DNA of 64,000 nucleotides from Rhina ancylostomus (GCA_030265395.1 JARFYF010000051.1:29014237-29078236), one strand, 5' to 3'; shown: positions 15,887 to 57,018, counted from the stretch's first letter. The notes: generated by a model from the letters alone, not told the origin. Translations and numbers: made by a program.

Positions 15887-18077
15887 CTGAAAAATAAAAT
15901 TTTCTGGAAATAACAATGTGGGAAAAGATGTGTTAATACATCAAAGTCAAAATAAATTAATAATGAAGGGGGCAAAGGTAAAAAAAAACTCTAAAATCCT
16001 TCAAACACATGCATTCAGAGATAAGAAAAACAACACAGCTAAGAAAATGGTACATTAAACAAAAACAGCACTCATCAAAAAATTCCCATGCTGGACCAAT
16101 TCTCCTTTCTGAGCTTTTTAAAAAATGTGCAAACATCCAGGTCTAAATTGTGATCCTCCACATGATGTTTTCAATCCCATTGAAATAATTTCAACTAGTT
16201 GATCCACATACCTATCTACCTGGAAACCAAAGTACACAAATTTATTAAAGAAAGTGGGTTACTAGTAATCAGCCTCGAATCTACGGTCAACTGCTGTTTC
16301 ATCATATTATCTATGCATATAGTATGATTTTATACATAAAATTAATACCAAAGGACATTTGGTCCAATTCCATTTTCTAAACAGAATGTTGCTTTTGTTT
16401 ACCTTAATATTTTTTGGGCTTCATTTAGATTTTCGTGCCCCTGTTGGCAGATGTTTCAATGATTGTGATGTTTAAGAGCAACAATGGTAGAGACTTGAAG
16501 CAAAGTTTTTTGTTTGCTTTTCTTCTCACCATTAGAACCAAAGAAAAGGGAGAAAGTAAATTTTGTGATTAAAAGGAAATTGGTTTGTCCAAATGTAATT
16601 GGATAATTTTGACCAGTAATCAAAAATCAGTATTTTAGCATAGGGAAAACTTAACATGATAAATGTGTTAGAAATTAATGGTTGATCAGTGCCAATTTCC
16701 TTTTTAAAATGAAGTTAGTTATATTGGTTTACTAAAGCAGAAAATAGTTTAAATCAGAGAAGAGTTGGTTAATTTCCAAGCAATGATAGGCCTGTGTTCA
16801 ATTGCTTTGGGCTTCAAGTCTCCATGCACTGCTTTCAGTACTGGAGACTGTTTTTCTATGCATCTTATATAGCCCCTTTTCTGATGATAACAAATGATTT
16901 CATATACACAAGTTGTAACCAAAATGCTCAGTTTTCATACAATGCAACCAATTAGTGACAGCCCAGCTGTTCACCACACTGTAGTTACTTGTTTATTAAC
17001 AAAGGGCTTTAGGCTCATGTTTTCAGGCATCTTGGGATGCTTGGCCAACGCATGAACCTAAAGCAGGAGATTAAAAAAGATAACAGCAAACCCCTAATGT
17101 TATGTCTCAGGCTGCAAGGAAATTCTGATAGTGGTTAGGAACTTCCTGATAAACTGTTATTCCATTTCTCTCTTGGTGGTTGATTTGAGTGATTGCTGGC
17201 CATTTATGAGGGAATGAAACTGGAACTGAAGTCTCCTGCCCTGGAGAAAAGTATATGGATTTAGACTCTAAGGAGCCAAGTGAGGCTCAAGATAAAAGGA
17301 GCAGTGTCAATGAGGAACACGAGACCAAGAAGAAAATGAGCATGTGGGGATAAAGCAAAAAACTGATAGTGAGCATCAATGTTTTCATAGGCCTTGAACC
17401 AAACCTGACTACTGAAACTGAAAATATCCAGGACTGTTCAGCACCAAAGGAACTCAACATAAAAGGCATTACAACACTAAACATTCTGGTTTTAATGAAT
17501 TCACAGGACAACAATGCTAACAAAAATTGGAGATGCAAAAAGGGAATTATCTGTTCAGCAATTATCTTCTAGAAGGTGCAGAAAGAATCAAAAACAATAA
17601 TGAAAGTGAGCCATGAGATTGCTTCATTAATTATCAAGGCATTAATTGCCAATGAAGATTTTGTGAAAGATTGTTTGTTAATAGCAGAGAACTGTATATA
17701 AAAAAAGTAATTCTGAATTGTTCAATGTTTTCAGTCCTGCGTGCTAGGTCCAGGAAACAACATTTTATGAGAACTGAAAGGGAGCAAGAAAATGTTTATG
17801 TACTCCCCCCAGTAGAATTTCAAACTTTGACTCAGCTTAGTTGACAGGATTTTTGTTTAGTGTGATAGATGAAATGTCTTTCAGGTTTATGATGAATTAG
17901 AGGTACTGGCATAAGTCCAAGGAAGATCAATGTGCATGGACTTGTTTATCAACCCCCAGGATAAAATTGAGTCTTTGTGATGGTAATGGGAAAAACTGAC
18001 TGGCATTTCAACAGATGGTGCACCATTAGTGAGAGGGAAACATAATGAAATAATCACACATCCCAAGCAGTATCTGG

Positions 18078-18173
18078 AAAAAAAGTGCTTTAAGAACTCA
18101 GCTGGATAAGCAGCATCTGTGGAAAGAGAAACCAGTTAATGTTTCAAGTCGAAGACCCTTCATCAGAACTGAG
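18078..18173 (-). mobile_element. Short Penelope-derived insert with 12-bp TSD, nested in a hAT fossil
   Basis: Perfect direct repeat agcagtatctgg at 18066-18077 and 18174-18185. The insert resembles the Penelope terminus at 41910-42010. Confidence 0.8.
18133..18171 (-). ncRNA. Minimal type-I hammerhead ribozyme motif (Penelope-type)
   Basis: Minus strand reads CAGUU-CUGAUGA-A-GGGUC-UUC-GACUU-GAAAC-AUU-AACUG. It has stem I (CAGUU/AACUG), an intact CUGAUGA box, stem II and a GAAA box. Stem III is loop-less, with A where the canonical motif has G (GAAACGU). Confidence 0.7.
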
Positions 18174-20289
18174 AGCAGTATCTGGGTGATTGAGGAACAA
18201 CTCTTCTTATTTCAGTGCATTATATAACAGCAAGAGGAGACACATGATGGATGCTGTTGTCTCCCTAGTCAGCTACATAATGTCTCTTGGACTCAACCAC
18301 TGTCAATGTAAAGAGCCTTCAGAAAAAATTATTGCTGTGAGTGGTTATGCATTTTATTGTGCAGAAGGTGGGTGGCTTAGTGAGGTATTGAAAAGGTTTG
18401 GAGCAATGCTGATGGAATTCAACATTTTGATAGGAAAAGGAACAATTTATGTATGGCCTCATCATCTAAATCATATCTTTTTGGACTAAACTGAAACTGT
18501 TCTAAACACACTTGCAATAAGGTGATTTCGCTCACTTTCATATTTGACAGATTCCTTTTTCAAGCACAATAGCAACTTGTGGGAAGCTTTGGTATTCATT
18601 TGAAATTTTCAGACATGTGCAGACACAGAAGAACTGAAGTTATTTGCTGATCCATTTGCAGCCTTCCCAGAAACAATAAAACTAAGCATTGTCTTTGAAA
18701 TTGTCAAACTGCAAACGCTGCACTAATGCAAAGAAAATCTACTCCATTTCTGCAATTTCCTTGACTCTAGCTTTTTTTTTAAAGAATTCAATAGGGTGAG
18801 CCACAAAGCCAAGTCCATTCATTTGCAAGTTCGCATTCTCTCTGTTGAGACTCAACAAATCAATGCAGTGCAATTGTATTTCAGATTCAAAGCCTGAAGC
18901 GATTATATATCCGGTAAAATGGAAAATAAAGCCCAATATTCCCAGAATGGTCTCCCAGACACTGTACAACATATCACGTTAATCCTGAGGTATAATCTAC
19001 CGATAAACATATATTGTTTTAATTTAATTTGGAAGGCAATGAATATCTGAAAATCTCTGATGACATCCCAGTTGTATCAAAAACACACCTTGTTACTGAG
19101 TCTCCAAGACTGATAAAGGGTGTAAATATGTTTTCATGCAAATTATACTGTCAAATATCAATAAGCACTATTCATAATGCCCTGAACTTTAAGCAACCAA
19201 ATTGTTATTAATTGTTGTTTGGCAAAAATCTTAACAAAACTTTCAACATACTTTCTGTCTTCATGCACATGACCAAAAATATTAGAATCTAATGACGTAT
19301 GATTAAAGAAAACATGTTTGATTAATAGCTCTCAGTAGAGATTCAGAATTTCAATTTTACTGCCAAAATATTGTGGATTCCTGATACAATGCTCTGCAGT
19401 TGTGACAACAAATCTGAAATACAAAGCCTAGATTGTGTTATAATGTTAAACAAGCTTACAGATGTTGGCCAACAAAATAAGGAAGAAAATTTTAGGTTGT
19501 GTTCTTTATTCCCCTCTTAAAGAAATAAAAAGCTAAAACAGAAGCAATTCATGTAATGCACAGAGAGAAATGTGCCAACCGATTATCTGAAGGTCCAAAT
19601 TTATTTACCAAACTATGATGCCAAAATCAGGAATCAGAAAAGTAATCACTTTTTGTGAAGTCAAACACTATTAGCCTTAAAGGAGATGGATTCTCTCAGT
19701 AGCTAATTACTTAGTAAATTATAGATTGTCTACTTTCCACTGCAATTACAGTCTAACGAATTGAATGATTGATATGTAGAAATGAAATCGCTCTATAAGT
19801 TCAACCATCTATTAAGACACTGTTGCTTTGCGAGAGGCTCAAACAACTTTTAAACAATTGCTTTATTACTAATCATTGTATATCAAATGGCATGATGGCA
19901 TAAAATCAACTTAAGTTGCTTTGCTTTTGCTGCAAGAGATTTTTTTAAATCATAATGGGTTTCCCTCATCTCCCAGGTCAAGCACATTGGCTCACAAAAG
20001 GAAGCAAATGGAATAATCCACTCAAATTCAGGATAAAAGGAAAATGAAATTAAATAGTATTTACTTTTATATTTATTTGTTTTATGTTTTAGGAGCTCCA
20101 GCCCCAGCCAAAGTGAAATATTGTTCAAGATTAACAGCACCGTATACAGCAGGTTAACATGAAGTTGACTCCATTATCATTCCTTATAATGGTGTACACT
20201 CCATATGGGGAGACACCAAGCATGGGTGCTCTGCAGTAAGGGAGATGACAAAGCAAGTGGCAGCTTTCTTGAAGACAGGGTCACAGTTA

Positions 20290-20880
20290 AAATCATAAAT
20301 TAGTACAGCACAGAAATGGGCCCTTCAGCCCACCACATCCACACTGACCTCTTTGCCCATCTACATTAATCACATTTGCCTACACTAGGTACATATCCTT
20401 CGAAGTCTTGTCTATGTAAGTGCCTGTCTAAAGACCNNNNNNNNNNGTAATGATTGTATCTGACTTGACCACCTCCTCTGGCAGCGAGTTCCAAATATCA
20501 ACCATTTTATGCAAAAGAAAATTACCCCTTAAATCCCCTTTAAAACTCATTCCCGTCACCTTAAACCTATAACGTTTTGTTTTTGATACCCCTGCTGTGG
20601 GAAAAGGATTCTGAGCATCTACCTCATGTATGCCTTGTACAATTTTATATACTTTCATCAGTCACCCTTCAAGCCTCTTCCACTCCAGGGAAAACAAGCC
20701 CAGCCAATCCAATCTCTCCCCATAATTGAAGTCCTCGAGTCCAGGCAACATCCTGGTGAATCTCCTCTCCATTCTCTCGAGCACAAACACATCCTTTCTA
20801 TAGTGTGGCAACCAGAACTGCATACAATACTCTAACCAGTGTTTTGTAAAGTTAAAACATAATGTCCCAACTTTTAGACA
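20290..20880 (-). mobile_element. CR1 LINE 3' fragment
   Basis: KVYKIVQGI...FKGDLRGNF...DIWNSLPEEVV, the CR1 ORF2 C-terminus plus 3' UTR. Confidence 0.85.
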
Positions 20881-21139
20881 GTTCTGCTGCAGAAGTTAAA
20901 TGGGGCAGCCTTATCGAGGAAGGTGATGGATATGCACGATGAAATGCTGGTGCAGAAACCCTTTACCCACTCATCCAACTTTCTAAATAACATTGCAACT
21001 TCATAGCAGATCCAGTAATGTGGATAAGTGTGAGGTTATCACTTTGGTTCTCGAACAAAAAGACATTATCTGAATGGTGTTGGATTAGGAAAAGAGAAGG
21101 TGTACTGAGGCCTGAGTGCCCTTGTACATCAATTGTTGA

Positions 21140-21740
21140 AATCAAGTATTCCAGTGCAGCAAGAAAGGCAAATGGTGTGTTGGCCTCCATTGCAAGAGGA
21201 TTTGAATATAAGAGCAAGGATCTCTTGCTGTAGTTGTATAGGGCCTTGGTGACATCGGGAATTTTGTGTGCAGTTTTACCATAGGAGTTCAACAAGTATT
21301 GAAGGCTGATTCCTGGGATGGTAGGACTGACAATGAGGAGAGATTGGGTCATTTAGCCCTATATTCACTGGAGTACAGAAGAATGGGAGGGGATCATGCA
21401 GAAACGTACAACATTGTTACAAGACTAGACTGGATAAAGAGTTATGTTCCTGACAGATGAAGAGTAGAACCAGGGGTCACAGTCTCGTGGTGTGAGGTAT
21501 GCCATTTAAAAAGAGAAATGGGGAAATTTATGGAATTCTTTACTAAAGAAGGCAATGGAGGACAAGTAATTTAATATATTCAACAATGAGGTAGACATAT
21601 TTCTTAAAGCCAAAGGGATCAAGGGATAAGGGACAAGGACGGGAACAAGGTCTTGAAGTGGATAACCAGCAACAATTATGTTGAGAAGTGGAGCAGGCCC
21701 GAGAAACAGAATAAGCTATTCCTGCTTCTATATTTATACA
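21140..21740 (+). mobile_element. CR1 LINE 3' fragment
   Basis: ARKANGVLASIARGFEYKSKDLLL and EERLGHLALYSLEYRRMGGDHAETYNI. Confidence 0.85.
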
Positions 21741-21789
21741 GTTATACAGTATGTTGCCGTACAAATTAAGGAAGTATCATTATGGCTGT

Positions 21790-23784: not shown

Positions 23785-23892
23785 GTGCCAGTGATGAAGA
23801 TGCTGCATACACTAAGAGTAAAGTGAAACAGGCTGGTCTGTCCTGGAGTATTAAGTTCCTTGTGGTGTATGCAACATCTTCATCACTGACAC
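23785..23892. repeat. 28-bp inverted repeat with 52-nt spacer
   Basis: gtgccagtgatgaagatgctgcatacac (23785-23812) vs gtgtatgcaacatcttcatcactgacac (23865-23892); 26/28 Watson-Crick. Confidence 0.9.
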
Positions 23893-28475: not shown

Positions 28476-29204
28476 NNNNNNNNNNNNNNNNNNNNNNNNN
28501 NNNNNNNNNNNNNNNNNNNNNNNNNNNNNNNNNNNNNNNNNNNNNNNNNNNNNNNNNNNNNNNNNNNNNNNNNNNGCTTGTAGCAAAACTTTGGAGAGGA
28601 AAAGGAAATTGGAGATGATGTTATCTTTTGCAAGTCAGTGAGGTCGAGCATTGTGCTTTTTTTTTTGAGGACTGTAATGATGATAAGAGAGAAAACTGTT
28701 AATGATATCACTGAACAAGGGGTGGTATAGAAAATTGGGTCAGCATCTCAGAAACAATAGGATCAAGGCTGCAGGTCACATGGATAGAATGAGCTTGGAG
28801 AAAACATGAGGGGAAATGGGAGAGAACTAGAGAAAGATGAGATGACAGCTAGGGCATTTAGAAAACTTAGATGTTCAGCCCAGTGGCAAGAGTAAGGGAA
28901 GTAATAGACAAAGTTAATTGGGTGGTGTTGGTTTGTGACAAAGAACTATGGAAAGTCCTCGCACTTGATGTTGGATGTGAATGTGCAGCACAGAAGGGAG
29001 ACTGTCTGCATTACTGCAAAAAGCTGAGGGTTATTTTTCACACAAGGATGTTAAGAAGAGTGAGCAATTTTGGCAAATGAGAACACGGTCTGATAATTCT
29101 GTTGTCCAGCCTAATCTGAAGATAAACCAAGTCTGATGCTCTTGGATACGAGAGGGCAATAATAAGGATGTCGTCAGGGTGATACAGAACAATAAATTAA
29201 GGAT

Positions 29205-29350
29205 AGAAAATCCTCAAAATAATCAGCAGATTAGCAGCATCTGTGAAAATAGAAACAGTGTTGACATTTCAGTTCAATGACCTTACATCAGAACTAGTCA
29301 GTTGCCACCTGAGCTTTGAGTGATTCAAACATTCTTTGTTACCAGTTTCC
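29205..29350 (-). mobile_element. Degenerate Penelope-terminus fragment with decayed hammerhead
   Basis: Minus strand GTT-CTGATGT-AAGGTCATTGAACT-GAAAT-GTC-AAC, followed by the acagatgctgct motif shared with the other copies. Confidence 0.6.
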
Positions 29351-29826
29351 GCAGTACTGTTGTTTGGGAGAGAGCAAAGTGATGTTAATGGGGGCCAGGG
29401 AATCAGTGGTGGAGGTTACGGTGTGGTTGAGCAAATCAATAACCAGTAGCATGGCAATGTTAGACTAATGGCTATATGGTTGAATTGGGAATGAAGTAGG
29501 AGAGACTAATCCTAAATTGTCAGGTTTCAGAAGTCTCTTTTATGGGAGAAAAAATTTCTGACAATCCACCTGATATATGCCTCTGATAACTTTGTATACT
29601 CTATCAGATCCCCCACCATCACCACCCCCCAACCCCTCAGCCTCTTCTGCTCCAAAGAAAACACATCCAGCCTATCCAATCTCTCTCCATAGCTGAAAAG
29701 TTCCATCCCACAATTGACAATGAGTTTTTTTGTTTAGATTGAAAGAACATGATAATATCATTCCCATAACAAATTTACAGTATAAAATCCAGTTTTAATT
29801 ATAAAATAATCAAAGACGGCATGTAC

Positions 29827-29952
29827 CTTCACTGTCCCATCATTGGAGCAGCTGGCTAGATATTGGTCATCAGGAGAAAAACTGCAATGGTTAACAGGTT
29901 CCCCATGGCCAAACAGAGTGTTTTTACAGCTGGTCCCCTTCAGGTCCCATGT
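29827..29952 (-). CDS. APAF1: APAF1 coding exon (human exon 16 equivalent; WD40)
   Basis: tag|TWDLKGTSCKNTLFGHGEPVNHCSFSPDDQYLASCSNDGTVK|gtacat; 126 nt. Confidence 0.95.
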
Positions 29953-33402: not shown

Positions 33403-33534
33403 CTACAGAGAAAATATTTTATTTAGCTGTTAAGTAGAGAAATATCATTAATAGAAAGACTAATATGTGCCATTCTTCAAGCCACTTATTTAAATAACTA
33501 ATTGAAGATATAATACAAAAAACACATCTGCCAG

Positions 33535-33668
33535 AGACTCAAGAGACTGCTGATACTGGAATGTGGAGTGACAGACAGTCCTGACAGAGTTTCAACCTGG
33601 AACATCAACAGTTTCTTTCCCCCCCACAGCTGCTGCTTGACCTGCTGAGTTCCTCCAGCAGATTGTTG
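33535..33668. mobile_element. Short Penelope-derived insert with ~15-bp TSD
   Basis: PLE terminal motifs in two orientations, flanked by aaacacatctgccag (33520-33534) and aaacacatcgtccag (33669-33683). Confidence 0.7.
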
Positions 33669-33702
33669 AAACACATCGTCCAGTTTTGCTGATATCTCTT
33701 AC

Positions 33703-33828
33703 CTTAACTTTTGTATCCGATGAACATGTGGCAACAAGTTTGTCATCTGGTGAAAATGCACAGCACAGCACTTCATCATCATGTGCAATAACCTCCAAAA
33801 GTTTCTCACCAGACTCGCTTTTAAAAAT
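33703..33828 (-). CDS. APAF1: APAF1 coding exon (human exon 14 equivalent; WD40)
   Basis: cag|IFKSESGEKLLEVIAHDDEVLCCAFSPDDKLVATCSSDTKVK|gtaaga; 126 nt. Confidence 0.96.
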
Positions 33829-34482
33829 CTGTGAAACAATTTTTAAAAAATGTTGAAACAAAAGATTTCCTTCCCAGTATTTGTTTCAAGAACTTAACCA
33901 TGCATCACACACGACCTTTAAGGTGCACCTAGAAAAATTTGTAGGAGGCAGTTTAAAAATGTTCCAAGAATAGTTGTGGATTTTATATTCCCAACACCTG
34001 ACTGAAAAGATTAACATCCCCCGAACCAGTAGTTTTTGAGTCCTCCCATGGATAAGTGAAGTACTGTACCATTCTGAACTTGCAGATGTGATGATGAGCC
34101 TTTTATTCTATTACAACTTCCTCATGGAAGCATAAATTTCATTTTGAAAACCAGGTAAATGATAATTCAGTAGTGATCTTACGAGTGAACACTTTGATGG
34201 CATCAAAGGGAAAAAAATTCAAAAGGTTACTTTTAATTGCAGGATGGGAAGTGTAACTTCCTGCTAGTCTTTTCCTTTCTATTTTGTGACACAACTATAA
34301 ATATGGTTGGTGGTTATACAAAAGGTGATAATGATTAAAACAATAGAAAAAAATAACAAAAAGCATGATGTTTAGAAATTAAAGATATCAAAGAATTATT
34401 GTAGAATTAATATTCTGTTTCTTATACCTTTCAGCACAATAATGGGATAATTTACGGATGAAGTGTTTAACTATTTGCTTAC

Positions 34483-34609: not shown

Positions 34610-36568
34610 CTATTATACGAAAATATTTGTTAACCTATATCCATGAAGGATAATGCTTAAAGCATATTGTTCCAGATATTTCTACATATTACAAAACAGA
34701 GCCACCTTAGTAACATAGAACATATGCAAATAAGAGTTGGATGGTTCAGAAGCATTTGCCCTCAGAAGGGCAAATGGCAAGCAAAGAATCACAACTAAGA
34801 GTGTGCTCCAGAGTTTATAAAGATTCTAGAACTATAGAAATGGAGGGTAGGGGGAGAGGAAGAAGAAAGAAAGTGCAAAAGTTGGAAAACAGAGGGTAAG
34901 CGTCAGCCCAGAGGACTGGAAGAGGTCACAGAGCAGTTGTAAAGGCATGGCTGATTTGTAGATGAATACTATGTTGGGGAGTAGCTAATGGGGTTTTCAA
35001 AGGTTGCAGTAAATGAAGAAAGATATAGGGTGAGGCAGAACAATCATAAAAGAGTTTTAGAAGTTGAAGTTTGAAAACCGGGCAAAGGAAACATTTCAGA
35101 CATCCAGTCTTCACCTGAATGGGAATTCTGGACTGAGTAGGAGGCAAAAAACAAGAAATTCTTTTATATTATTTTATATAAATCTATGAATGTCAGGGGC
35201 ATTTAAAAACTATTTAAAATCAGTTAAGGTTTTTGACAGGAGGCAAGATATGCCCAAGAATCACCTTTGATCAAAGTGTGTCTGCGTGTGGGGCTTCTGT
35301 GCTAGGCTGTCTGGGGTCTACTCGCAGCTGAGACCTTGCCATTCAGCTTGAAGGCACAGATGGACAGCAAGTTTGGCCCAATGCATCTGAACCAGGTGAG
35401 TGCAGACCTAGTCCAGGAAGATTCAGTCCAATGTTAAGGCCAGAGAGCTGCAAAATTCCCCATAAACAGATAAAGTTCTCTGGGCAATGAAAGTTTCATT
35501 GAAATAGTGTATAAACCCAGGAAGAGAATACTCACCAGAGTATAAATAAGGCAGCAAACTAAAGTTACAAGCATCTGGCTTGCACACATCAATTAAAATA
35601 TCTGATCCTTGTAGTATGTACATAAACACATAGAAATTACAGATAAAGTCACTTGTCCAGACAGTTCACATTAATGTTTATCCTTTATATATGCAGTCAT
35701 ACTAATTCCGAACAGTGGGTCTGTTCAATCAACCATCTGATCTATTTTTAATTATTGACATGTCTCTTGAGCTCACCAAAAATGTACTGTTCTCCACGCA
35801 CACTACATTATTCCCCAGCATCAATCAAAACATTGTGTAATCTCAAACTATTTGCTACAAAGTCAATTTGGCTGACATCATGCAATTCAATCATAGGAGC
35901 TGTTTTCCTCTGATGATAAAGAACAGATGCCAGGTTCAAGATATTACAACCACTTTAGATGTGCACTAGCAATATCTGATGACATCTCAACAGTCAATGT
36001 GTTACTGAGTTTAACACCCTCCAGCATGTGTGCTATTTATATAAACCTACATGCCAGACAACAACTGTTGAATGGAAAGGTGCCAGTGTATTGTATCACA
36101 ACTTATCCAATCTTAGTCAAAAACTGCAGACTATTTTAAAATAAACACAAGAGAAATACCTGCAGATGACAAGATTTCAAAATTTCAATTCACAGCATAA
36201 ACCATCACATTCATTAACAGACTGGGTAATCTTTGTTTCTGACTTAACAAGGGGATTTCATAAACAGAATATTTAGCATATTTCAAAAAAACTAAGACCC
36301 TAACCTAATGGAAAACTAATTAATTCAATTGTTACACTATTATACAATTTTCAGTTGATTAAATAGGAACGACTCAATGTTTTCAACTTATTTTAGATAA
36401 AATATAATGAAATTAAATCTCCATGGTAGCCCAAAAATACAGAAAGAAAATATATGAAGAGCAAATCCAGTAAGCCTCCATTCCACCTGAAGAATACAAA
36501 AGCAAAATCACAATGATATTAGTCGGTTAAGCAGACTTTCTGACATTATACCACTTTTGAATACTAAC

Positions 36569-36753
36569 ATCCATTCCAAGTAGACAGCTCCATTTTTGGC
36601 CTTTTCCACAGCCTTCAGTTTTGCCTGACGGTACACTTCAGAGGAGTCTGGCTGAGAAAGCCCCAACTGCACAATATCTGGAAAGGGTTTCTGCACCAGG
36701 AGATGGCCTTTCAAAGACAGGAATTCTTGAAAATTCTCCCGCACAGTACTGTT
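36569..36753 (-). CDS. APAF1: APAF1 coding exon (human exon 12 equivalent)
   Basis: tttacag|NSTVRENFQEFLSLKGHLLVQKPFPDIVQLGLSQPDSSEVYRQAKLKAVEKAKNGAVYLEW(I)|gttagt; 185 nt, ends in phase 2. Confidence 0.95.
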
Positions 36754-39700
36754 CTGTAAAAGAAATAGTACAACTTTAACTTGTGGTTCATCAGATCAAT
36801 CCATGTACAGACAGCTACTGTCATAACTGCCTGCACTTGCCATCTCAGGCCGGAAGGTATATAGATCAGCAAGATCCCTTGGATATCACCAATTTACCGA
36901 CCTTCTGACTGCTGTTCACTAGCAAAGCTGGTCCTTTGCCAAGCCACTGGGACTGAATCTTCCAGCTCTTGTGTCAATAGGTGGCCTCCTCAGTTAGTGA
37001 TCAGGCATCCACTGAGATGTGTTGGTGCACAAATCACTCAGTGGTGAGGCACCTCAGAACAGCAGGTTCAAGTCTCTACCTGATGGGATTAGAATTTGAG
37101 CTACATAATGCAAAAGGCCAGCAGCAAATACCATTTTATAAAGCATTTTAAATACTCAGCCAAAACAGCAAATCGCGAGACCCAAGTGAGACACAGTTGT
37201 GCAATCTAATGAGATCCCACACACATCCTCACGTGCAAGAAAGAGATAAGATAACATTGGAATTTCAACTTTTTTTTTCATATCAAGTATTTTAAGTCTG
37301 AATCATCAAGACCAATGAAACTCAATTTTACACAGGCAACTTAAATAATCAACTGTTTGAACTACTTTAAAACACCTCATAAATCCATGGAGAGTGAAGG
37401 TTAGGAAAGGGACCCCTATCAGAATTGCAGCTTAAACTTAGAGTCAATGAGAAGGGACGCAGACACCACCACCCAGGAGAAACTATACAAACACCACCAC
37501 CAATTTGCAGCTGCCACGCCAGGTAGGGTACGGAGAATGTCATGGGGCGGGCGTCTCAAAAATCAGAGGACGGTTATCTAATGCTTTATGGAATGCTGCA
37601 AATTTCTCACTTTTTTATTTTGCATTTGTAGCATGCATTGGAATCATTACTCTGCCAACTATGTTTGGCAGGGTCAGCCAGATGGATTTAGTTGGAATTC
37701 AGCAGGTCTGCCAAGGTTTGCTAGGTGAAACATCCTGTGGCTGCAACCATATAGTGAATGCCGGATGGACATTGGTTTGGATAATCCAGCCCAAAAGCCA
37801 GACATACTGTGATTTCCAAAATGTTAAATATTCTGTATTGCAAATTGCTATGAATGCCATATTATTAGAGATATGATTAGTATCTCCTAACAAGGCAGTG
37901 TCATAAAGTTCTTTATAACAATTTCCTCCCAACCTCTCAATGGTCCTTGCTAAATATCTGTTCACGTCCTTGTCTACCTTGCAGCTGAAACACTGACAAG
38001 AAACTTTCTATAAATAATAAACCACCATGTCAAAGGGAATGATCTGTATAAAATAAACTAAATGGATGAGACTATGGACCACTGAAAAAGATGTCTCCAC
38101 AGTTTACATTTGAAATTGCTGTTATTGGTGAAAATATTAATAAAGGATGTTTTTAAAAAGATGGAAAAGTACAAATAAAACTAATCAAAATCATATGATT
38201 GTCAAAGAGCTGGAAATATTAGCAACCTTCTTGTGAATTTAATTGTGTTCTTCTTTTAATAGATGTGTGGAATAACTTTCTACAAAACAATACATTGTTA
38301 ATCTCTTAAAAACAGGATGAATATATGGTTAAGAACATGACTGAAGTCTGTAAGTATTAACTGCAGAGGAAAAGTGAAATATTTAATTGGTATTTGGCTT
38401 TCATCTTTCAGATCCAAGCTCAAATTCAGTCAAGCCTGACAAAATCTCTCTTATATCCATGTGAAATAAATTAAGATCATTCAACTAAATTCTTAATGAG
38501 CTATGGCCCATGTCACAAAATAGCACACAACAGAAAACTGCTCCTGCACATCAATGATTATCCATTTCAGTCAGGGAGGCTATAAGATGACAAGCATTGG
38601 GAAGGAAAATTATATGGATAAATCGGAAGTCCTCTTTGGGCACTAGGGCTAGCTAAAATGTTAGGCAGATTAGAGGGAATTAAACTCACAATAACTGAAA
38701 CAGAAGCACTCATGAATGACACTGGAGACAAAAAAAAGGAAATAATCCCAATACTAATATTTTCAATTTATACAAAATTCACCAACTATACGCAATCAAT
38801 TAAATGCTCTGTGACAGAGGTGATCAATTTGTAGCTCTTGAACCACTTGGTATTCAAGCTCTGTCAATGTGGACCTTGAGACTTATTTATGCTAATACTT
38901 ATTTGTCAGGTTGATTCATTTGTCATTTGAAAAGCACTGCTTTCAGCACCACTGCCTTGCAGGCAAATAAGTACCAAATCAAAACAGATATGTTAGTATA
39001 TGCAACCTGAGACTTANNNNNNNNNNAGAGGAATATTGGTTTAAACCCTTGGTAATGATGAGGTCAAAGAAGGAGCCAGCTGTAAGAAACAACAGATTAC
39101 TTGTTACTGAGACAGACCTTGAATGAATCACAACTGAAATGCAAATTGTCAGAGAATACATTAATATCCAACAATTTTGCTTAATCGTGATCAATGCTGA
39201 GATGAACAATCACATGTAACTTCCTGAAGCATTTACTTGTGGTCAATTTTCATTCTTAGGGCAGAAAGACAACTAATTGTAGATGACCCAAAGAGGGAAT
39301 GCGATTGATTGGTTGAATGGCTTTCTTTATTAGTTATTTTATTCTTATTGTATTAGTAACCAAAGCAAATACTTACTTCCCTGATTCCAGGATGGCAGAG
39401 AAATGAAAAGCACAATGCCACTGATATTTTTAAGAATTACGGTAGTTAAAATGATGTTAGATCTTAACACTGAAAACACAGTTTAATGTTACTTAAGCTT
39501 ATAGATTAAGACATACTCTAATCATGCTTTTTTATTCAATAATTGAAAGCTATTGTGAACTGCATTTTTCAACTCTATCAGTCACTTTAGATATCAACAG
39601 CTTGCTGCATTTATATATTGAATCATAATGCAAAGAAACGTGAATATTCTAAGGAGAGTATTATCAAATAAGAAAATGTAACAAAAGCACAAAAAAAATA

Positions 39701-41909: not shown

Positions 41910-42850
41910 CGACGCAAGAGACTACAGATGCGAACTCAGCAGGACAAGCCGCATCTGCAGAAGCAGAAGGATGGTCGACATTTCAGATCGAGACCCTGCA
42001 TCAGGACTGAGGAAAGTTTGAACAGAGTGCAGAAGTGAGAGGGAGGGGGTGAGACAGAGGCTGTAAGTGATAGATAGAATCAGATGAGTGGTGAATGATG
42101 GGCAGATGGAATCAGGTGGAGGAGGGGGAGGGAGTGGGTGCGTGCTGAGATAAAGACCAGTAGGAGATAGGTAGAACCAGAAAATAGAGGGATGATGGGC
42201 AGATGGAATCAGGTGAGGGAAAAGAGGAGGAACGAAAAAGGTGAACAAAGAGAGAAAGAGCCTGGATGGACTGGTAAGAGTGGGAAAGGAACATGGGGGG
42301 AGTGGGTTACCTGAAACTGGAAAATTTAAATGTTCATAGCTTTGGGCCGTAGGCCACCCATGCAGAATACGAGGCACTGTTCTTTTAGATTTAGCCTCAC
42401 TGTGGCAATGGAGAAGGCCAAGAACAGACAGGTCAATGTGGGAATGTGAAGGGGAGTTGAAATGATGTATAACCAGAAGCTCACGATGGCCATTACGGCC
42501 AGAGCACTGATACTCTGCAAAACAGTCACCAAGTCTACACTTGGTCTCGCCAATGTAGAGGAGGCTACATCATGAGCACTGAATGCAATAGACAAAGTTG
42601 GAGTTGCACATGAATTTCAACCGCACTTGGAAGGGCTTGTAGATCACTGGATGATGGTGAGGGAGGAATTGCAGACAGGTGTTGCACCTCCTACAGTTGC
42701 AGGGTAAACTGCCAGAGAGGGGTGGGTGGGAAGCGATGAACAGACCATGGATGGAGTGGACTCTGTGGAAAGCAGAAAGGGGAGAAGAGGAGAAGGTGTG
42801 ACTGGTGGTGGGATCCCACTGGAGCTGGAGGAGGTGGCAAAATATGATAT
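41910..42850 (-). mobile_element. Penelope-like element remnant with GIY-YIG endonuclease and hammerhead-bearing terminus
   Basis: Minus-strand translation around 42330-42600 gives VYCIQCS*CSLLYIGETKCRLGDCFAE...HFNSPSHSH...KEQCLVFCMGGLRPKAMNI, typical of the PLE GIY-YIG endonuclease. It is followed by a pyrimidine-rich tract and CAGTC-CTGATGC-AGGGTCTCGATCT-GAAAT-GTC-GAC at about 41972-42009. Confidence 0.85.
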
Positions 42851-42950: not shown

Positions 42951-43110
42951 CCATGAGGAACTTTATCAAACACCTTACTAAAATCCATATAGACCACATC
43001 TACTGCACTTCCCTCATCAATCTTCCTTGTCACCTTCTCAAAGAACTTTATCAGGCTTGTGAGGCAAGACCTTCCCTTCACAAAGCCATGCTGGCTGCCC
43101 CTAATCAGAC
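42951..43110 (-). mobile_element. CR1 RT fragment
   Basis: KGRSCLTSLIKFFEKVTRKIDEGSAVDVVYMDFSKVFDKVPH, canonical CR1 RT. Confidence 0.9.
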
Positions 43111-44299
43111 TTTTGCCTTAGTTGGCCAAAGGCTGTGATGGTGAACCGAAAGCCATGACGAACTTCATCATCCATGTCTGTTTTTGGAGAGAGGTGGAAA
43201 TAGCCCACATTGGCCAGGGTCTTGCTGTGAACCTTTGATGTCAGAGGGCAGCACAACTCTCTGCTTTATAAACGCACCACAAGTGTGGAATACAAAATCT
43301 AGAAGATGCAGTGGAGTAACTCAAGATCTTCAATTGTACCACCTCAGCCAATGAGGTGTATGGGAACACAAATGCAATTTCACCACCAAGTCATACATTT
43401 GTACTATTTAGAAATATATCACTGTTCTTTGATCATCATGAGCCAACGTCCTAAAATTTCATACCTTGACAGCACTGTGGAAATACCTTCTCCATGAGGG
43501 CTTTGGCAGTTCCATCAGGCAGCTCAACACCACCTTCTCAAGGCCAATAAATGATGGCATTAAATGCTCACCTTGCCAGCATAACTCACAGCCAAATTAA
43601 GAATGAAAGATTTGAGAAGAGTAGAAGATAAAAGACTGGACAGGAGAGCATTGAAGTGGTCAAGCTCAGAGTCACAAAGCCTTAAATGATGGTTTCAGCA
43701 GGTGAGCTTGAATTAAGAATGGAACAAGACACATTTATGGAAGTGGAAGGTTTGAGTACTGGAACAATACTTACGAAAAGTCATCAACCTGAAAAAGTAG
43801 CACTTTGTCCCAGATGATGCCTGACCTTGAGTATTCCTGACATTTTATGTTTTTTTTAGTTGAAGTTCTCTTCTATTTTAAAATAGGAAAAATACAGGCA
43901 AAGTTGTTTTGTAACAAAAGTATCTCCTTTGATCTTCACAGCAATCTCAAATGCTACTTCTGCTTATGCGATCTATAGTCAGGAGTTCAAATCTCACTAT
44001 GTCAGGCTGTGAAAATGAAACCAATTATATGTGAGTTAGCATGAATAAAATAAGAAAAATGCAACCAGTCTACCCTTTGGGAAAGGATACTCATCACCTT
44101 GAATTGATCTTCAAATGGCTATAGTTCACACCATAAGGCTGATTCATGTACTTTCTGAAAAGACTGACCAAAATGGATTAGAATGCATTTACTGTTTGGA
44201 CAATAAATATGGTGGCATCAGTACCATCTACATCCTGAAAACTTCAAAAAGAAAAATGTTTCATGTTCAAATTTTACCTCTATCATTCTACTGTTGAGA

Positions 44300-45635
44300 A
44301 TTGCTCTCAGGAAGTAAATTAATTCAACTGAAAGCCAATAAATCTCTAGGATCAGATGAACTGGATCCAAGGTTTTTGAAACAGCTGGTAATGGAACTAA
44401 TGGATGCAGTGGCTGTCATCCTCCAAAATTCCATTAGAACAGAAGGTGGCAAATAGATCCCCACTTTTAAGAGAGGGAGAGGAAAAAAAGGCCAGTTAGC
44501 CCGATGTCAGTAACAGAGAAAGTGCTGGAATCTATTATTAAGGAAAGGGTAATGGAACACGAGGAAAATAATAACCTAATTGGGCATAACTAACATAGAC
44601 TAATGAAAGAGAAATTATGTTTTACAAATCTATTAGCATTTCTGAGGTTGTCACTAACAAAACATGTCAGGCTGAACCAGTGTATGTTGTGCATTTGGAC
44701 TTTCAGAAGACCTTTGCTGAGGTAGCATAGAAGTTATGAAGCAAAATTACAGCATATGGAATTGAGAATAATACTCTGGTTAACAGACAGTTAAGCAGGG
44801 CAGGAGTAAAATGGTGAAAAATCTAAAAATTGCAGATGCTGGAAACCTAAAAGTGAAAACAGAAAATGCTGGAAATACTCAGCAGGTCAGCTGCATCTGT
44901 GGGATGAGGAACAGAGTCAAAGTTTCAAATCAGAGATGAAGTTCAATTCTGACAAGGGGACTCTGAGCTGAAATGTCAACTCTGTTTCTCTTCCCGCAGA
45001 TGTGACCTGAACTGCTGAATATTTCCAGCAATTTCTGTTTCAGGATTAACAAGTTATTTTTGTGTTCGGAAGCTGTAATGACTGGAGTACAACAGGAATC
45101 AATGCTTGGGCCCCAGTGATTCACAGAATGTATCATTGATTTGGATGAGAGGGCCAAGTGCAATGCATCCAAGTTGATGATGATTCACAATTGAATGGCA
45201 GTGTAAATTGTGAGAAGGATGCAGTGAGTCATCAAGAAGATATAAATATGCTAAGTGAATCGAAGCTGATGTGGCAAATGGAATATAATACAGATAAATA
45301 TGAAGTCATCCACTTTGGTAAAAAAAAATAGAAAAATAGAGTCTTTTTTTTAAGTGGAATGAGATCGTGAAGTGTTGGTGCTCAGAGGGACTGAAGTGCC
45401 TACGCATACAAATCACTGAAATTTGATATGCAGGAACAGCAAGCAATTGGGCAAACAAGTACCCTAAATGCAGGAAGAGTGGGTATAAGTAAAGGCATTG
45501 AGTTGTATTTATGAAGCATATTGATGAGACTGCACCTGGAATATTGTGTTTAGGTTTGATCTTCCTACCAAAGGATATACTTGCAATGGAGGGCCTACAG
45601 CAAAGATTCACCAGGTTGTTTCTTGGGATGGAATA
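44300..45635 (+). mobile_element. CR1 LINE ORF2 remnant interrupted by a PLE insert
   Basis: VHLDFQKTF, EVIHFG and KDILAMEGLQQRFTRLFLGM motifs. Confidence 0.8.
44811..45040. mobile_element. Inverted (head-to-head) Penelope-terminus insert inside a CR1 LINE
   Basis: About 70-bp imperfect inverted arms at 44857-44927 and 44969-45040. Degenerate hammerhead CTGACAA...GAAAT GTC at 44945-44981. Probable TSD caggagtaaa / caggattaac. Confidence 0.75.
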
Positions 45636-46799: not shown

Positions 46800-47560
46800 A
46801 TAGAACATAGAACAGTACAACACAGGATCAGGCCTTCGGCCCACGATGCTGTGCTGAACTAATCAAACGCCTAAGTAAATTAATCCCTTCTGCCTACACA
46901 ATGCCCATATACCTCCATTCTCTGCATATTCATGTTCCTATCTCAGATACTTTTAAACACCTCTTTTGTATTTGCCTGCACTACCACCTTGGCAGCACAT
47001 TCCAGGCACACACTACTCTGTGTAAAAAAAACTTGTCCCACACATCTCCTTTGAATTTACCCCCAGTCACCTTAAATGCACACCCTCCAGTATTAGACAT
47101 TTTGACTCCGGGAAAAAGATACCAGCTATCTATCTATGCCTCTCTTAAGTTTATAAACCTCTATCAAGTCTCCCTTCAGCCTCCATTGCTCCAGAGAAAA
47201 CAACCCATATTTGCCCAACCTCTCCTTATTGCACATGCCCGCTAATCCAGGCAGCATTATGGTAAACCTCTTCTGCACCCTCTCCATAGTCTCCATATCC
47301 TTCCTATAATGGGGCAATCAGAACTGAATGAAATACTCCAGATGCAGCCTAACCAGAGTTTTGTATAGCTGCAGCATGACTCTTAAACTTGATACCTTGA
47401 CTACTAAAGGCTAACATGCCATACGCCTTCTTTACCACCCTATCAAATTGTGCAGCCACTTTCAGGGAACGATGGACTTGAACCCCAAGATCCATGTGTA
47501 CACCAACGCTGTTAAGGATGCTGCCATTAACTGTGCACTGTCCCTTTACATTGATCTCCC
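46800..47560 (-). mobile_element. CR1 LINE 3' end
   Basis: PHYRKDMETMERVQKRFTIMLPGLAGMCNKERLGKYGLFSLEQWRLKGDLIEVYKL; terminal (tagaaca)n repeat at 46801. Confidence 0.9.
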
Positions 47561-47599
47561 AATGTTTTTTTTCTCTTTTTTTTTGTTAGGCCAGTGTGA

Positions 47600-50071: not shown

Positions 50072-51300
50072 CAAATTGCTATTTTTAAAAAAGGAAATCT
50101 GTAACAGTGCAACTAAGGCAAATTAGGGAATATACTAATGAGTCAGGGATTTGTATCATTTTGTGTAATAATTACATTAATCATATAAGCTACTTAAATA
50201 CCACTCAGAATTAAACAATACCCCCAACCATGCCAATTATATTTGAGAATGTATATTAATGAAGTTCTGTTATGGTATCAATGAATCTAAATGGTACGCA
50301 GTTATAAAATGCATACATTTGTTTCACATTTCAAGATTTTCCACTGCTCAAAAGAAATACAAGTTCCATTTAGAGTTCTGGGGCATTGTTATAAGGAATC
50401 CATCGAACCCACAGACCAATCTTGATCCAAACCCTGAAGACATGCATTTATTTCCTGTATTCCAATATGCTTCACATACAATAGAAGCTGGTTCGTTCAA
50501 AACCCTGTAAACAGTAATAAGGACAACAATCCATTAATCTGTATTTTGTAGTGGATTTACAGAGGATTGTTGGCCAGGTCATCATGCAATTTTAGCATCA
50601 TTGTATCGTTCTTGAGCCACTGAAGGTCTTGAGTTAACAAAGATGTTCCATCTCCAGTCAGCCTGCCTACCAGAAAGGAAACTACATTCTGTAATGATAT
50701 TAAACGAACAATGTTGATTTAATTCTTCCATCTGAAACAGAAGATGAGCCTTCCAGCCACAGGAAATAATTGTACATTGAACACTGCCTCTGAAAGGGTA
50801 AAGAGTTGTTCAGGGGGCATAAATTTAGGGCATAAAATATCATCAAGATGAAGGGCAAAGAAATGATGAGACAAGTGAACTAAATCTTCTTGCCAGTATA
50901 CAGAAACTGGCTTACACAAACAAGCTCACTATATTCTCATGCTTAAGTCAACAACAAAATAGAACTACAGAGTCATAGCCCTAGAGATGCTATACTGAAG
51001 GCCAAAAATCTCATCTGCTTTTCTCCTATCATCATAACAAAGTGAAAAACTAAGTATTCACAAATGCCCTGGCAAATTCCAAGATCTATGCAAACAAATT
51101 TCAAAATTGCTATTTTTTGAAAAAGAAACCTGTAACAGTGCAAATAATGCAAATTAGGGAATACTGTATAGGGAGTATACTAATGAGTCAGGAAGATTCA
51201 TAACTTTTTATGTCATAATTACATTAATTATATTAAGCTACTTAACTATCACTAAGAATTAAACAGCACCCAACCATGCCAATTATATTTGAGAACGTCA
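50072..51300 (+). repeat. Dispersed direct repeat of about 180-200 bp (copies at ~50072-50252 and ~51102-51298)
   Basis: Colinear shared blocks: aaattgctattttt, ctgtaacagtgcaa, gcaaattagggaata, tatactaatgagtcagg, ataattacattaat, taagctacttaa, agaattaaaca, cccaaccatgccaattatatttgagaa. Confidence 0.9.
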
Positions 51301-53629: not shown

Positions 53630-53844
53630 AAGAGAACTTGCATTCTTTTATTCATCTTTTACAACCTCAAAACTTTTCAAAGTCCTTCAAAGATAGTCAA
53701 GCAATTTTGGAATATATCTACTGTTTTAAACACAACGGCTAAATTGTTCACTTCAAACTTCCACAAATATCAATGAGATGATCTGTTTAATAATATTAGT
53801 TGAATATAGATAAGTATTAGCCAGCATACCAAAAGAACTGCAGC
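53630..53844 (-). mobile_element. Ancient Deu-domain SINE-like fragment (SacSINE1/AmnSINE-related)
   Basis: Resembles my recollection of the Deu core in reverse (acggctaaattg...cttccacaaatatcaatgagatg...tattagccagcatacc); not aligned. Confidence 0.45.
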
Positions 53845-54287
53845 NNNNNNNNNNNNNNNNNNNNNNNNNNNNNNNNNNNNNNNNNNNNNNNNNNNNNNNN
53901 NNNNNNNNNNNNNNNNNNNNNNNNNNNNNNNNNNNNNNNNNNNNNNNNNNNNNNNNNNNNNNNNNNNNNNNNNNNNNNNNNNNNNNNNNNNNNNNNNNNN
54001 NNNNNNNNNNNNNNNNNNNNNNNNNNNNNNNNNNNNNNNNNNNNNNNNNNNNNNNNNNNNNNNNNNNNNNNNNNNNNNNNNNNNNNNNNNNNNNNNNNNN
54101 NNNNNNNNNNNNNNNNNNNNNNNNNNNNNNNNNNNNNNNNNNNNNNNNNNNNNNNNNNNNNNNNNNNNNNNNNNNNNNNNNNNNNNNNNNNNNNNNNNNN
54201 NNNNNNNNNNNNNNNNNNNNNNNNNNNNNNNNNNNNNNNNNNNNNNNNNNNNNNNNNNNNNNNNNNNNNNNNNNNNNNNNNNNNNNN

Positions 54288-54347
54288 ACCCATCATGTCA
54301 GTCTTGGCCTTTATCCAATCCATTGAAAACATCAGTGAATAGAGCTC
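54288..54347 (-). CDS. APAF1: APAF1 coding exon (human exon 11 equivalent), 5' part only; the rest is in an assembly gap
   Basis: cag|ELYSLMFSMDWIKAKTDMMG, then the N run 53845-54287. Matches the APAF1 segment ELCALMFSLDWIKAKTELVG. Confidence 0.92.
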
Positions 54348-55902
54348 CTGTGAAAAATAATTTATAAAATTCAGAATACTCTCTCTTAATAAATCTGAAA
54401 GATAAATTAGAATCCGCACTCTGGAAATTACAAGGCAAACAATAAAAATACTTCACAAGAATACAACACTTTACGCACACTGAAACTATCCAGAAAGTAA
54501 GCATGCTCTTGACTCGAAGGGAGTGGAAAGGACTTGAGACAAAATTTCTGCTTAAACAAGTATATTATGCCATTAAACAAAGCATCTGTCTGCCTGCCTC
54601 ATCTTCTGGGAGGCAGAAGCAGAGACTACCAACAAGTTTATCCAATTTAACCCAACTTGTTAAGATAATCTCACAATGCTAGTGACTTGGGTCATATTGG
54701 AAATCATAGTCCAGATGACTTCATGCAACCAATTGAAGGGATGCTTGTAATGACAAATGACAAACAAAGGAGGAAACAAAAGACAAAACTTCACAGTTGT
54801 ATACTTTTCATGAATTAGTTACTATTTAAACTGGCCCTAACAAAATTACATACAAGTTATTATTCCAGTTCATTGTACTAATTCGAGGGAACATAGGAAA
54901 TGTTACTAACATTTCTCATTATTACTCAATTTCAAAAGACTATCAGCCAGATCATATCCTTAATTTCTTCAGTTATGGTTATTTGGGTAAAACTACAGCA
55001 GCTCATCTGTATGTATTATATTTTAACAGTTATGTGAAAAGTTGAAATATTTACAACAAAAGCCATTACAAATTTAACTCTTCTGCTGAAAAAAAATTAC
55101 ATTACTAAACTCCTAATAATGACAAAGCAAATTTATTAATCTATAAAATGAGAAATTTAATACACTAAGCTTATTTGAAATACTAACTCAATTTCTAACA
55201 ATTTTCTTGCAAAAATGATTTTGTGATGTAATGCTCATTACTATCTCTATTTGAGGCATGCAGATTAGTTACTCCATTAGGAAACAGAACTTTAAAAGAT
55301 TAATTATGTATAGAGCTCAGCTCGATTAAAAATCTCACCCCCTGATTAAATTACATATTCTTTCTTTAAAAAAAAGCATTTTATTCTTTCCTTTCCAACT
55401 CACTCTGGCAGTAAAAGAAGGGAGGTAATGAAAATGTCACTTAAGAATATGTAAAAATTGCTTGGCAACGCTTCATTATTCGATTATATCTCCACAGGAA
55501 AGCATAGCCACTGCCTATGAATGAATGGAAGACTTAAATCGCAGCTGCTACTTAGCATCTTCATATGTAACCTGCTTTAGATCTGAAACTCTCAGCTGGC
55601 TTCCATAATCTCCACAATGTAGTCATAATGAAACATTATTTGTATGGTCATTTTTACATATTGTTGAATTGATGTTTGCATAATTACAGCTGGAAACACA
55701 CATCTACTTATTAAATGTACAACATTCAAATATCTTTGTTATAAAATGAACACCAACTTCTAAATGGAACCACAAGAAGCAAATAGCTGTAAATTTCCTC
55801 ATGTTAACTTCAAGCCAGTTTTTGAAATTAGGCTGAGAGATAGCTTAGATGCACTAATTCATAAATGCACCTGCTTTTAAGGGACAACAACTCAAATGAA
55901 TT

Positions 55903-56047
55903 GGAGACCCAGGAGAATGCAGGTGTTGGAATCTAGAGCAAAAAAATTAAACAATCAGACCGTATGCAGAGCCTTAACCTGAAACATCAACTATCTTTCT
56001 GCCTCCACAGATGCTGCCTGACTTGCTGAGTTCCTGCAGTTTGTTTT
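55903..56047. mobile_element. Short Penelope-derived insert with ~14-bp TSD
   Basis: Same bipartite PLE-terminus architecture as 33535-33668, flanked by aactcaaatgaatt (55889-55902) and aactcaaataaatt (56048-56061). Confidence 0.7.
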
Positions 56048-57018
56048 AACTCAAATAAATTAATCACTACAAAATTAAATAAAATAATAAAAATGATCTC
56101 AAAAAATTATTTCTGTGTAACAAATTCAAAAATACAACAAAAATATTACACAGAAGTGACATCAACCTGTTAAATATATCTGGAAAGGAACCAAGAATTC
56201 CTTATCCAGGATCTTAAGAGCAGAGTGCACAAAATCCATGTGAATTTTGAAGTTACATCAGAGGAAAATGTCCAGAATTTAACTCATGAATCTACCATTT
56301 AAGAAATCCCAGATGACTTTGTCAAGCAACAAACTAGATCAAACTGAATCCAAGAGCAAGAATAACAATTGGTAATTTGTATTGCATGAGTCATGTTATA
56401 CTACAATAACTATTTCATGACATGGCCTAACCTCTGCCAGAGTTAAAACTAAAAACTTCCTCTGCACAACAAACACAAAGTATCCACTGCTGTCATGCAA
56501 AGTAAATATCATCAAGATATTCAATCTTTCAAATGTACATAATGTAACAATTGTGGTGTCTTTAAAACACACAAGGAGCCCTTATTATTAACAAGAAAAA
56601 TCCCTCATTTGTTTCATTTTTGGTTATATTTATGCCAGCTTGAAAACTAAGTAAATATAAATAGTACTCAAAAGTGACATTTTAATCTTCACAAAAAACT
56701 CAAAAATAAGGAAGAACTGAAAATAGATGGCAACAAGATAAGGTCATCAGTCCAAGGATCTGAAATTGGTTCCTGGGTGTAAAGAAGCTGTGGTGACCTT
56801 AAGAAATTTTTTTATAACCGTCTTCTTGCCCTGTAGTCTTGCTACACAACAATTAATGGAATGGCTATGACTAAACCATGACAGAGTTCCATGACCAGTT
56901 TCAGTACACTTTCCTTCTATGGTCATATATTGTCAATTTTCAGTTCTGAGCTTGGAACCATCACCTTTAAATTAGGTTTTACAGATTAAGACAATGTGAT
57001 TACAAAATGAGCACCAAC

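Follow-up and report, generated by a model that had tools for sequence, protein, structure and literature searches.

Which process scatters very short, non-coding inserts with a common hammerhead-bearing terminus through vertebrate intronic DNA? The question is raised by a stretch of 64,000 nucleotides of such DNA from Rhina ancylostomus (GCA_030265395.1 JARFYF010000051.1:29014237-29078236; the whole stretch is called the window below), in which the inserts accompany the remnant of a Penelope-like element (PLE). The original prediction left two proposals, either a retrozyme-like mini-element processed by its own ribozyme and mobilised by the PLE, or a stereotyped truncation and inversion product of PLE integration. 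The second fits well with the ends, the orientations and the target-site duplications (TSDs) that we observe. According to our analysis, the short loci are probably extremely shortened integration products of autonomous Neptune-type PLEs, copied from uncleaved PLE RNA.

Six short loci (A–F) and the 3′ end of the remnant (P) have in common a decayed minimal type I hammerhead and ~60 nt downstream of it, in the pseudo-long terminal repeat (pLTR) of the element. The terminus by which the inserts had been recognised is indeed shared, although the strand on which it was quoted is the reverse complement of the hammerhead and downstream pLTR. The loci are composed as follows, with the evidence in brackets; TSDs and junction bases have no strand.

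18066–18077: left TSD of A (12/12)
18078–18173, minus strand: A, single tail-less pLTR arm of 96 bp, with its start at −7 relative to the hammerhead core (blastn, profile, end test)
18133–18171, minus strand: A, minimal type I hammerhead, predicted cleavage after 18138 (descriptor and stem pairing)
18174–18185: right TSD of A (12/12)
29205–29297, minus strand: B, decayed pLTR arm without TSD, ends without independent definition (blastn, profile)
29298–29450, minus strand: B, possible upstream continuation, weakly like the pyrimidine-rich region of P (local and anchored similarity tests)
33520–33534: left TSD of C (13/15)
33535–33575, minus strand: C, tail piece from the very 3′ end of the element, in inverted orientation to the arm (tail profile)
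33576–33668, plus strand: C, tail-less pLTR arm of 93 bp, with its start at −5 relative to the core (profile, end test)
33669–33683: right TSD of C (13/15)
41911–42011, minus strand: P, 3′ pLTR end, made up of a hammerhead remnant, the pLTR downstream of it and an internally deleted tail (blastn, profile)
42007–42310, minus strand: P, intron-like stretch of 304 nt, 78% pyrimidine (scan for splice-like motifs)
42311–42848, minus strand: P, broken C-terminal open reading frame (ORF) of a putative Neptune-type PLE, cut by a 100-N gap (protein homology)
43765–43857, plus strand: F, strongly decayed pLTR arm without TSD (profile)
44801–44809: left TSD of D, modest support (8/9)
44810–44936, minus strand: D, arm D2, with the entire tail and the pLTR back to hammerhead stem II (profile)
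44937–44942: D, six bases at the inversion junction, in neither arm (junction inspection)
44943–45040, plus strand: D, arm D1, tail-less pLTR arm of 98 bp, with its start at −6 relative to the core (profile, end test)
45041–45049: right TSD of D (8/9)
55889–55902: left TSD of E (13/14)
55903–55954, minus strand: E, tail piece, inverted relative to the arm (tail profile)
55955–56047, plus strand: E, tail-less pLTR arm of 93 bp, with its start at −6 relative to the core (profile, end test)
56048–56061: right TSD of E (13/14)

Three points recur in these loci. Z marks the foot of stem I and precedes the core by 5–7 nt, Y follows the cleavage site by ~60 nt, and T, the tail end, comes about 35–47 nt after Y. 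Locus A is Z–Y by itself. In C and E, Z–Y is inverted against a piece that runs from just upstream of Y to T, with an overlap of about 5–13 nt, and in D it is inverted against a piece from stem II to T, with six bases between the two. P begins at T and continues past Z into the ORF. Between their TSDs, the inserts measure 96 (A), 134 (C), 231 (D) and 145 bp (E). Because the tail pieces of C and E begin about 5–13 nt upstream of Y, arm and tail partition one pLTR in these two loci. The strands assigned by the profiles agree with the common bipartite layout that had been proposed for the copies at 33.5 kb (C) and 55.9 kb (E). Locus D, listed previously as a copy at 44811–45040, does belong to the family, but as a head-to-head inverted pair and not as a plain copy; a hairpin of ~85 bp is predicted for it (−102.8 kcal/mol, z −10.8). 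In the host pre-mRNA, this hairpin might be a substrate for RNA editing or small-RNA production. The signature of PLE insertions, with pLTR arms in direct or inverted orientation and a tail at one end, is found in C, D and E.

Our results showed that the ends of the tail-less arms coincide. The arms A, C1, D1 and E1 start at −7, −5, −6 and −6 from the core, they are 96, 93, 98 and 93 bp long, and their 3′ ends fall within ~2 nt of one another on the contiguous arm D2. These ends are set by an abutting TSD or inverted arm, and B and F were left out of the count for lack of such defined ends. For four uniform ends to lie inside 3 nt, p is 3e-4 to 5e-7 for ranges of 60–400 nt, in a test applied to a pattern that had been noticed beforehand. 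Random truncation, on this post hoc comparison, is no explanation of the four coincident Z ends. Upstream of the same four arms there is no similarity to P, and no significant exon-1-like sequence was found upstream of the arms (best D1, 9/188). P itself reads through Z, so that Z is no absolute block.

Flanking direct repeats had been reported for four of the inserts, and those of A, C and E beat chance. We used a loose test with 150 random placements per locus and a junction-tight test with 1500. The TSDs of A (12/12), C (13/15) and E (13/14) were each reached by 0/150 placements in the loose test and by 0, 1 and 0 of 1500, respectively, in the tight one. The repeat at D (8/9) was reached by 24/150 placements (non-significant) and by 19/1500, which makes it modest. 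B and F have no TSD, since 131/150 and 125/150 random placements were as good, and a wide search gave none abutting. Over the six short loci, TSDs of 9–15 bp are thus clear in three, modest in one and absent in two. The architecture described for PLEs comprises a tail at one end only, an inverted 5′-truncated pLTR and TSDs of 8–10 bp (PMC8557442, PMC3846280).

The homology claimed for five of the inserts is real. Pairwise blastn among them gave best mutual E-values from 3e-14 (C–E) to 6e-9 (A–B). A profile trained on seven arms, with the best of 20 shuffles (10.5 bits) as threshold, produced eight matches in the window, namely the seven training arms at 64–78 bits, which are high by construction, and locus F. 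This faint insert, suspected near 43780–43850, was outside the training set and matched at 43765–43837 with 19 bits (E 5e-5). No copy beyond these was found in the window at the sensitivity of this profile. For B, placed originally at about 29205–29350, homology extends to about 29297, while 29298–29350 has no match to the tail profile; as this profile has no match in 29150–29450 either, B was rejected as a third bipartite copy. The window contains 12 runs of N (10–443 bp, 1041 N in all), and seven loci in its 62,959 non-N bases amount to about one per 9 kb.

Pairwise identity among the eight arms ranges from 0.55 to 0.81, and the two arms of D, a single event, are 0.81 alike. CpG is nearly lost, with 0–1 per arm in five arms. 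Judged from their sequences, the short copies are old, dead insertions. P is nearest to E (identity 0.75) and has the tail type of C and E, with which it groups in a tree (UFBoot 77) that is unrooted, covers about 100 columns, contains only one coding copy (P) and has UFBoot values of 69–82. Because P is closest to E and shares this tail, the short forms may have arisen in more than one subfamily, a reading to which the tree lends weak support. Three weak tblastn matches to the short loci were judged to be chance.

In element sense, the hammerhead consists of a 5-bp stem I, CUGANGA, one bulged base, a 5-bp stem II, GAAA and a loop-less helix III. The CUGANGA/GAAA core that had been proposed persists as remnants: GAAA is present in 6/7 loci, but CUGANGA is intact in A only (1/7). 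A is also the only locus in which both motifs coexist with a paired stem I, and it gives the single match of a strict hammerhead descriptor in the whole window. An Rfam scan of the window detected no hammerhead at E≤5 and returned three chance-level matches only. Stems I and II are paired in 70% of 60 cells, compared to 8–37% with slid partners. Stem covariation stays within the range of shuffles (210/500), as expected from copies that decay neutrally. The same dinucleotide is TG in three copies and CA in three, from which we deduce an ancestral CpG and a palindromic helix III. Such a helix points to a dimer-type PLE hammerhead, of which it is a hallmark (PMC4209133). In arm A, 36 nt precede the cleavage site and 60 nt follow it, and neither arm end coincides with it.

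Our analysis confirmed that the same terminus is joined to a GIY-YIG-coding Penelope remnant. The ORF of P encodes the C-terminal part of a reverse transcriptase (RT), a CxxC linker and a GIY-YIG endonuclease (EN); it is damaged by one in-frame stop and at least two frameshifts, and its 5′ end is hidden by the 100-N gap. A HMMER search with its translation (X at the stop) retrieved 1035 proteins at E≤0.001 (best 4e-25), and identity to the second match, P0002, is 46% over 146 columns. A word-indexed protein search of the remnant against longer proteins gave 0/40 candidates, and its frames scored no family in Pfam. The long relatives of P carry RVT_1 and GIY-YIG, with scores below the curated cut-offs. 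A Cx2-5CxxC linker is present in P and in 75 of the 88 matches that have the full EN motif (among 150). This linker lies upstream of GIY-YIG in Neptune and Nematis and not in Poseidon (PMC8557442), and the PLEs reported in vertebrates are Neptune and Poseidon only (bioRxiv 10.64898/2026.07.22.740005). We therefore prefer to regard P as a probable Neptune-type EN-positive (EN+) PLE, chosen over Nematis because of this vertebrate occurrence and not by RT phylogeny.

With P0002 as query, the nearest named relatives belong to rays and sharks (Hypanus, Mobula, Rhincodon, Stegostoma, Chiloscyllium and Rhinoraja), which makes an elasmobranch host likely. No full-length elasmobranch parent was present among 52 long relatives (best 49% identity), no N-terminal match for an ORF start in the pLTR among 233 proteins, and we found no description of a PLE family of this kind in sharks or rays in the open-access literature. 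Several elasmobranch gene models (P0002, P0003, P0201 and P0210) contain PLE RT or endonuclease sequence inside proteins named after host genes, such as mucin-2, divergent protein kinase domain 1C and receptor-transporting protein 3-like, which could be either annotation artefacts or exonisation.

The order in P is stop codon, 304 nt at 78% pyrimidine, hammerhead and about 95 nt ending in the tail. The pyrimidine-rich stretch carries a donor-like GT where the stop codon lies (37 comparable sites among 6499 GT), a branch-like motif and an AG acceptor-like site inside the 5′ strand of stem I; 119 of 8039 AGs are as good as the latter. A spliced-frame read from the ORF end into the hammerhead occurs in 0/233 proteins. 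In one of the 233, a Stegostoma gene model, the endonuclease is followed by a similar low-complexity stretch and a peptide matching the hammerhead frame, and the layout is thus not unique to P. The stretch is in host-gene sense. In one Hypanus gene model, the last residues of the ORF are followed by unrelated sequence, perhaps because the donor-like site is used.

From the ends, orientations and TSDs observed, we infer an order of events and a cause of Z, with the enzymology borrowed by analogy from a lizard Poseidon PLE. The GIY-YIG endonuclease would nick both strands 9–15 nt apart, as the TSDs suggest. From both 3′-OH ends, RT would then begin copying at two fixed positions within the RNA, Y and T. 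In Anolis, the Poseidon element PAc nicks and extends both strands from two RT start sites that bracket the tail, with target homology unneeded and the RNA template uncleaved (PMC11167929). The Y-primed strand would copy through the intact hammerhead and stop at Z, most likely the 5′ end of the RNA within the upstream pLTR, in which case the arm would be a run-off, strong-stop-like cDNA of about 95 nt. The T-primed strand would stop at variable points: near Y on meeting the other primer in C and E, where both strands would be primed on one RNA; at stem II in D; and more than 900 nt upstream in P, where it would be primed on the downstream pLTR. Finally, the two cDNAs would be joined head-to-head, or one kept as in A, and gap filling would yield the TSD. 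Given an origin as integration by-products, the chances that Z is the RNA 5′ end, reached by run-off, are about even. The Initiator has the consensus YYANWYY, and an Initiator-like match stands at −6..+1 in 5/7 loci, with a background of 1.3% per position. No report of a fixed 5′ end or a strong-stop product in PLEs was found in the open-access literature. The complete scheme, with two-site priming on the 5′ pLTR of the mRNA, one or two RNAs and run-off at the stem I foot, is put forward tentatively, as a possibility that we rather doubt.

Several points weigh against this account. The fixed ends come from four boundary-defined copies in one window, and the ends of F are undefined. The Initiator match is one post-hoc observation over homologous sequences and gives weak support; the same bases also form the acceptor-like AG, stem I and a 4-bp palindrome starting at Z. 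The tree, short and unrooted, has low support. B may continue ~150 nt upstream of Z: its local similarity to P there is equalled by 16/2970 windows and 3/1000 shuffles (6/120 in the anchored test). This case is weaker because the pyrimidine stretch of P gives matches at three other places as well (about 22.0, 24.6 and 62.1 kb), which have no hammerhead arm and were taken as chance and not as family copies. In Drosophila virilis, the start site of Penelope lies 46 nt upstream of an intron (PMC2377424), which is at odds with our placement of Z, and the end of this intron maps to helix I (PMC4209133). Moreover, the in vitro support comes from the Poseidon clade and not from Neptune.

The same intron end in D. 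virilis is what one would expect if the loci were by-products whose Z is set by a protein-bound 3′ splice site or pyrimidine tract blocking RT, or by fold-back or self-priming at the stem I palindrome. The acceptor-like AG of P lies 3–5 nt downstream of Z behind the pyrimidine tract, the donor-like site stands at its stop codon, D is almost centred on Z, and palindromes at inverted junctions together with antisense self-priming have been discussed and proposed for Adineta (PMC3846280). We consider such an origin of Z quite unlikely, as P and perhaps B pass Z, A has no second arm there, and the spliced-frame read was not seen in any of the 233 proteins. A dedicated non-autonomous solo-pLTR master RNA, reaching from Z to the tail end (~135 nt) and moved in trans by the PLE protein with no ribozyme involved in its processing, would account for the fixed Z, Y and tail end and for the local density. 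Sequences of the pLTR alone are enough for trans mobilisation and solo pLTRs exist in Adineta (PMC3846280), and non-autonomous PLE derivatives are known in Chlamydomonas (PMC8557442). However, the loci contain nothing foreign to the parent sequence, a simple Z-to-tail unit between TSDs is seen in 0/4 TSD-flanked loci, and P nests with E and C (weak support), so that at least two independent masters would be needed; we hold this explanation to be unlikely.

The ribozyme-processed proposal corresponds to a non-LTR retrozyme, in which monomers cut by the hammerhead form circles that the PLE enzyme copies into DNA, the loci being dispersed monomers. A minimal type I hammerhead is present here, and retrozymes, which derive from PLE pLTRs and are known to have dispersed monomers, have been found in one chondrichthyan (bioRxiv 10.64898/2026.07.22.740005). 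A religated circle would span the cleavage site too, and spanning it is therefore not enough to dismiss one; orientation decides. Copying of a circle would give direct orientation, whereas the tail is inverted relative to the arm in C and E and no tail-end-to-Z junction in direct orientation exists, which rules the religated circle out. In addition, no end falls at the cleavage site, the core is intact in 1/7 loci, the 11 tandem repeats reported by TRF all lie outside the inserts and have periods of at most 22, 0/7 loci are tandem, and P does not fall outside the short copies in the weakly supported tree. This proposal did not stand, and we regard it as very improbable. A plant LTR retrozyme, with its type III hammerhead and 4-bp TSD, is ruled out by the type I topology, TSDs of 9–15 bp and the lack of direct LTRs. 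Equally hard to credit is random decay, in which longer PLE copies would have been trimmed after insertion by deletion or recombination. It agrees with the old, diverged copies, with the internal deletion in the tail of P and with the missing TSDs of B and F, two loci that may carry decayed tails. Yet the short inserts of A, C, D and E are directly bordered by TSDs, the breakpoints are shared, and arm and tail are complementary in C and E.

In L1 twin priming, the product between the TSDs consists of an inverted upstream piece and, with a small overlap, the 3′ piece directly next to it. The loci described here are alike in these respects, but they have no poly(A), their priming site is fixed and not random, and another enzyme family is involved. 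With canonical EN+ PLE insertions (D. virilis Penelope, Adineta Pen2a, Neptune clade) they share head-to-head inverted pLTR arms, short TSDs, a 30–40 nt tail at one end and a pLTR hammerhead, as well as the CxxC linker before GIY-YIG in the parent. In contrast to them, the insertions are 96–231 bp long without ORF, the direct copy is reduced to the tail in C and E, and the tail-less arm has a fixed 5′ end in 4/4 defined cases. Products of PAc in vitro resemble ours in two fixed ends that bracket the tail, in the use of both strands and in an uncleaved template; PAc is from a different PLE clade, and a fixed 5′ stop is absent from the main-text discussion of that work (PMC11167929).

Dispersed minimal type I hammerheads of truncated PLEs also have no loop III, a palindromic helix III and a bulged base before stem II. 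Most are single, some form opposite-strand pairs 100–700 bp apart, and coelacanth and Xenopus have thousands of them; the Results and Discussion of that study (PMC4209133) do not deal with elasmobranchs, TSDs or end positions. Animal non-LTR retrozymes are likewise non-coding, pLTR-related and PLE-dependent with a type I hammerhead, and form tandem units of 150–300 bp, each with a hammerhead, that self-cleave and circularise (PMC7761336; bioRxiv 10.64898/2026.07.22.740005), whereas the present loci are solitary or inverted copies whose ends do not coincide with the cleavage site. Dispersed minimal hammerheads of truncated PLEs, including opposite-strand pairs, solo pLTRs and PLE-derived retrozymes are thus already published. 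As a repeat family, the loci are ordinary, truncated or inverted PLE ends with minimal hammerheads being known in fish, coelacanth and frogs.

Several other features of the window were noted. On the opposite side of the 100-N gap from P, 42951–43117 (minus strand) encodes an RT fragment (RVT_1, E 0.009) that looks, from its motif, like a CR1/L2-type long interspersed nuclear element (LINE) and is not part of P. The exon at 33715–33846 (minus strand), the only host-gene exon covered by the protein search, has its best natural-protein match in Apaf-1 residues 640–678. Further exons of this APAF1-like minus-strand gene lie at about 29825–29900 and 36508–36795 (both minus strand), and insert C occupies an intron position ~30 bp past the 33.7 kb exon. 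The segments 50073–50252 and 51104–51298 form a direct repeat (81% over 197 columns, spacing ~1 kb). Dispersed repeats at 20454–20851, 46966–47368 and 29632–29697 (65–80% identity) are probably LINE 3′ ends. Two imperfect palindromes, 23785–23892 (108 bp) and 5940–6005 (66 bp), are like miniature inverted-repeat transposable elements, and the former has a chance-level Rfam hairpin match. Short repeats in inverted orientation, 28400–28447/57497–57544 and 11303–11346/11779–11821 (81–84% identity), are possibly pieces of short interspersed nuclear elements.

The value of these loci is mechanistic, since insertions of 96–231 bp with intact TSDs expose both ends of both cDNAs. The origin of inverted pLTRs and tails, the role of the hammerhead and the RNA that is copied are described as open in the PLE field (PMC8557442, PMC11167929). 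If the fixed 5′ end holds genome-wide, aligning thousands of copies would put two-site priming in Neptune to the test, tell sense run-off apart from antisense self-priming, and show that insertion ends are not set by hammerhead cleavage. Elasmobranch genomes might contain minimal PLE insertions of this sort in very large numbers, each a strong-stop-like cDNA integrated directly, an extension that we advance with more doubt than confidence. If true, where the PLE transcript starts, where RT begins at either site and how far the nicks are staggered could be read from a very large natural set of junctions, and it would become clear why so many dispersed minimal hammerheads are found complete and uncut. 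It also calls for caution, as solo hammerhead “monomers” scored as offspring of retrozymes may be by-products of PLEs.

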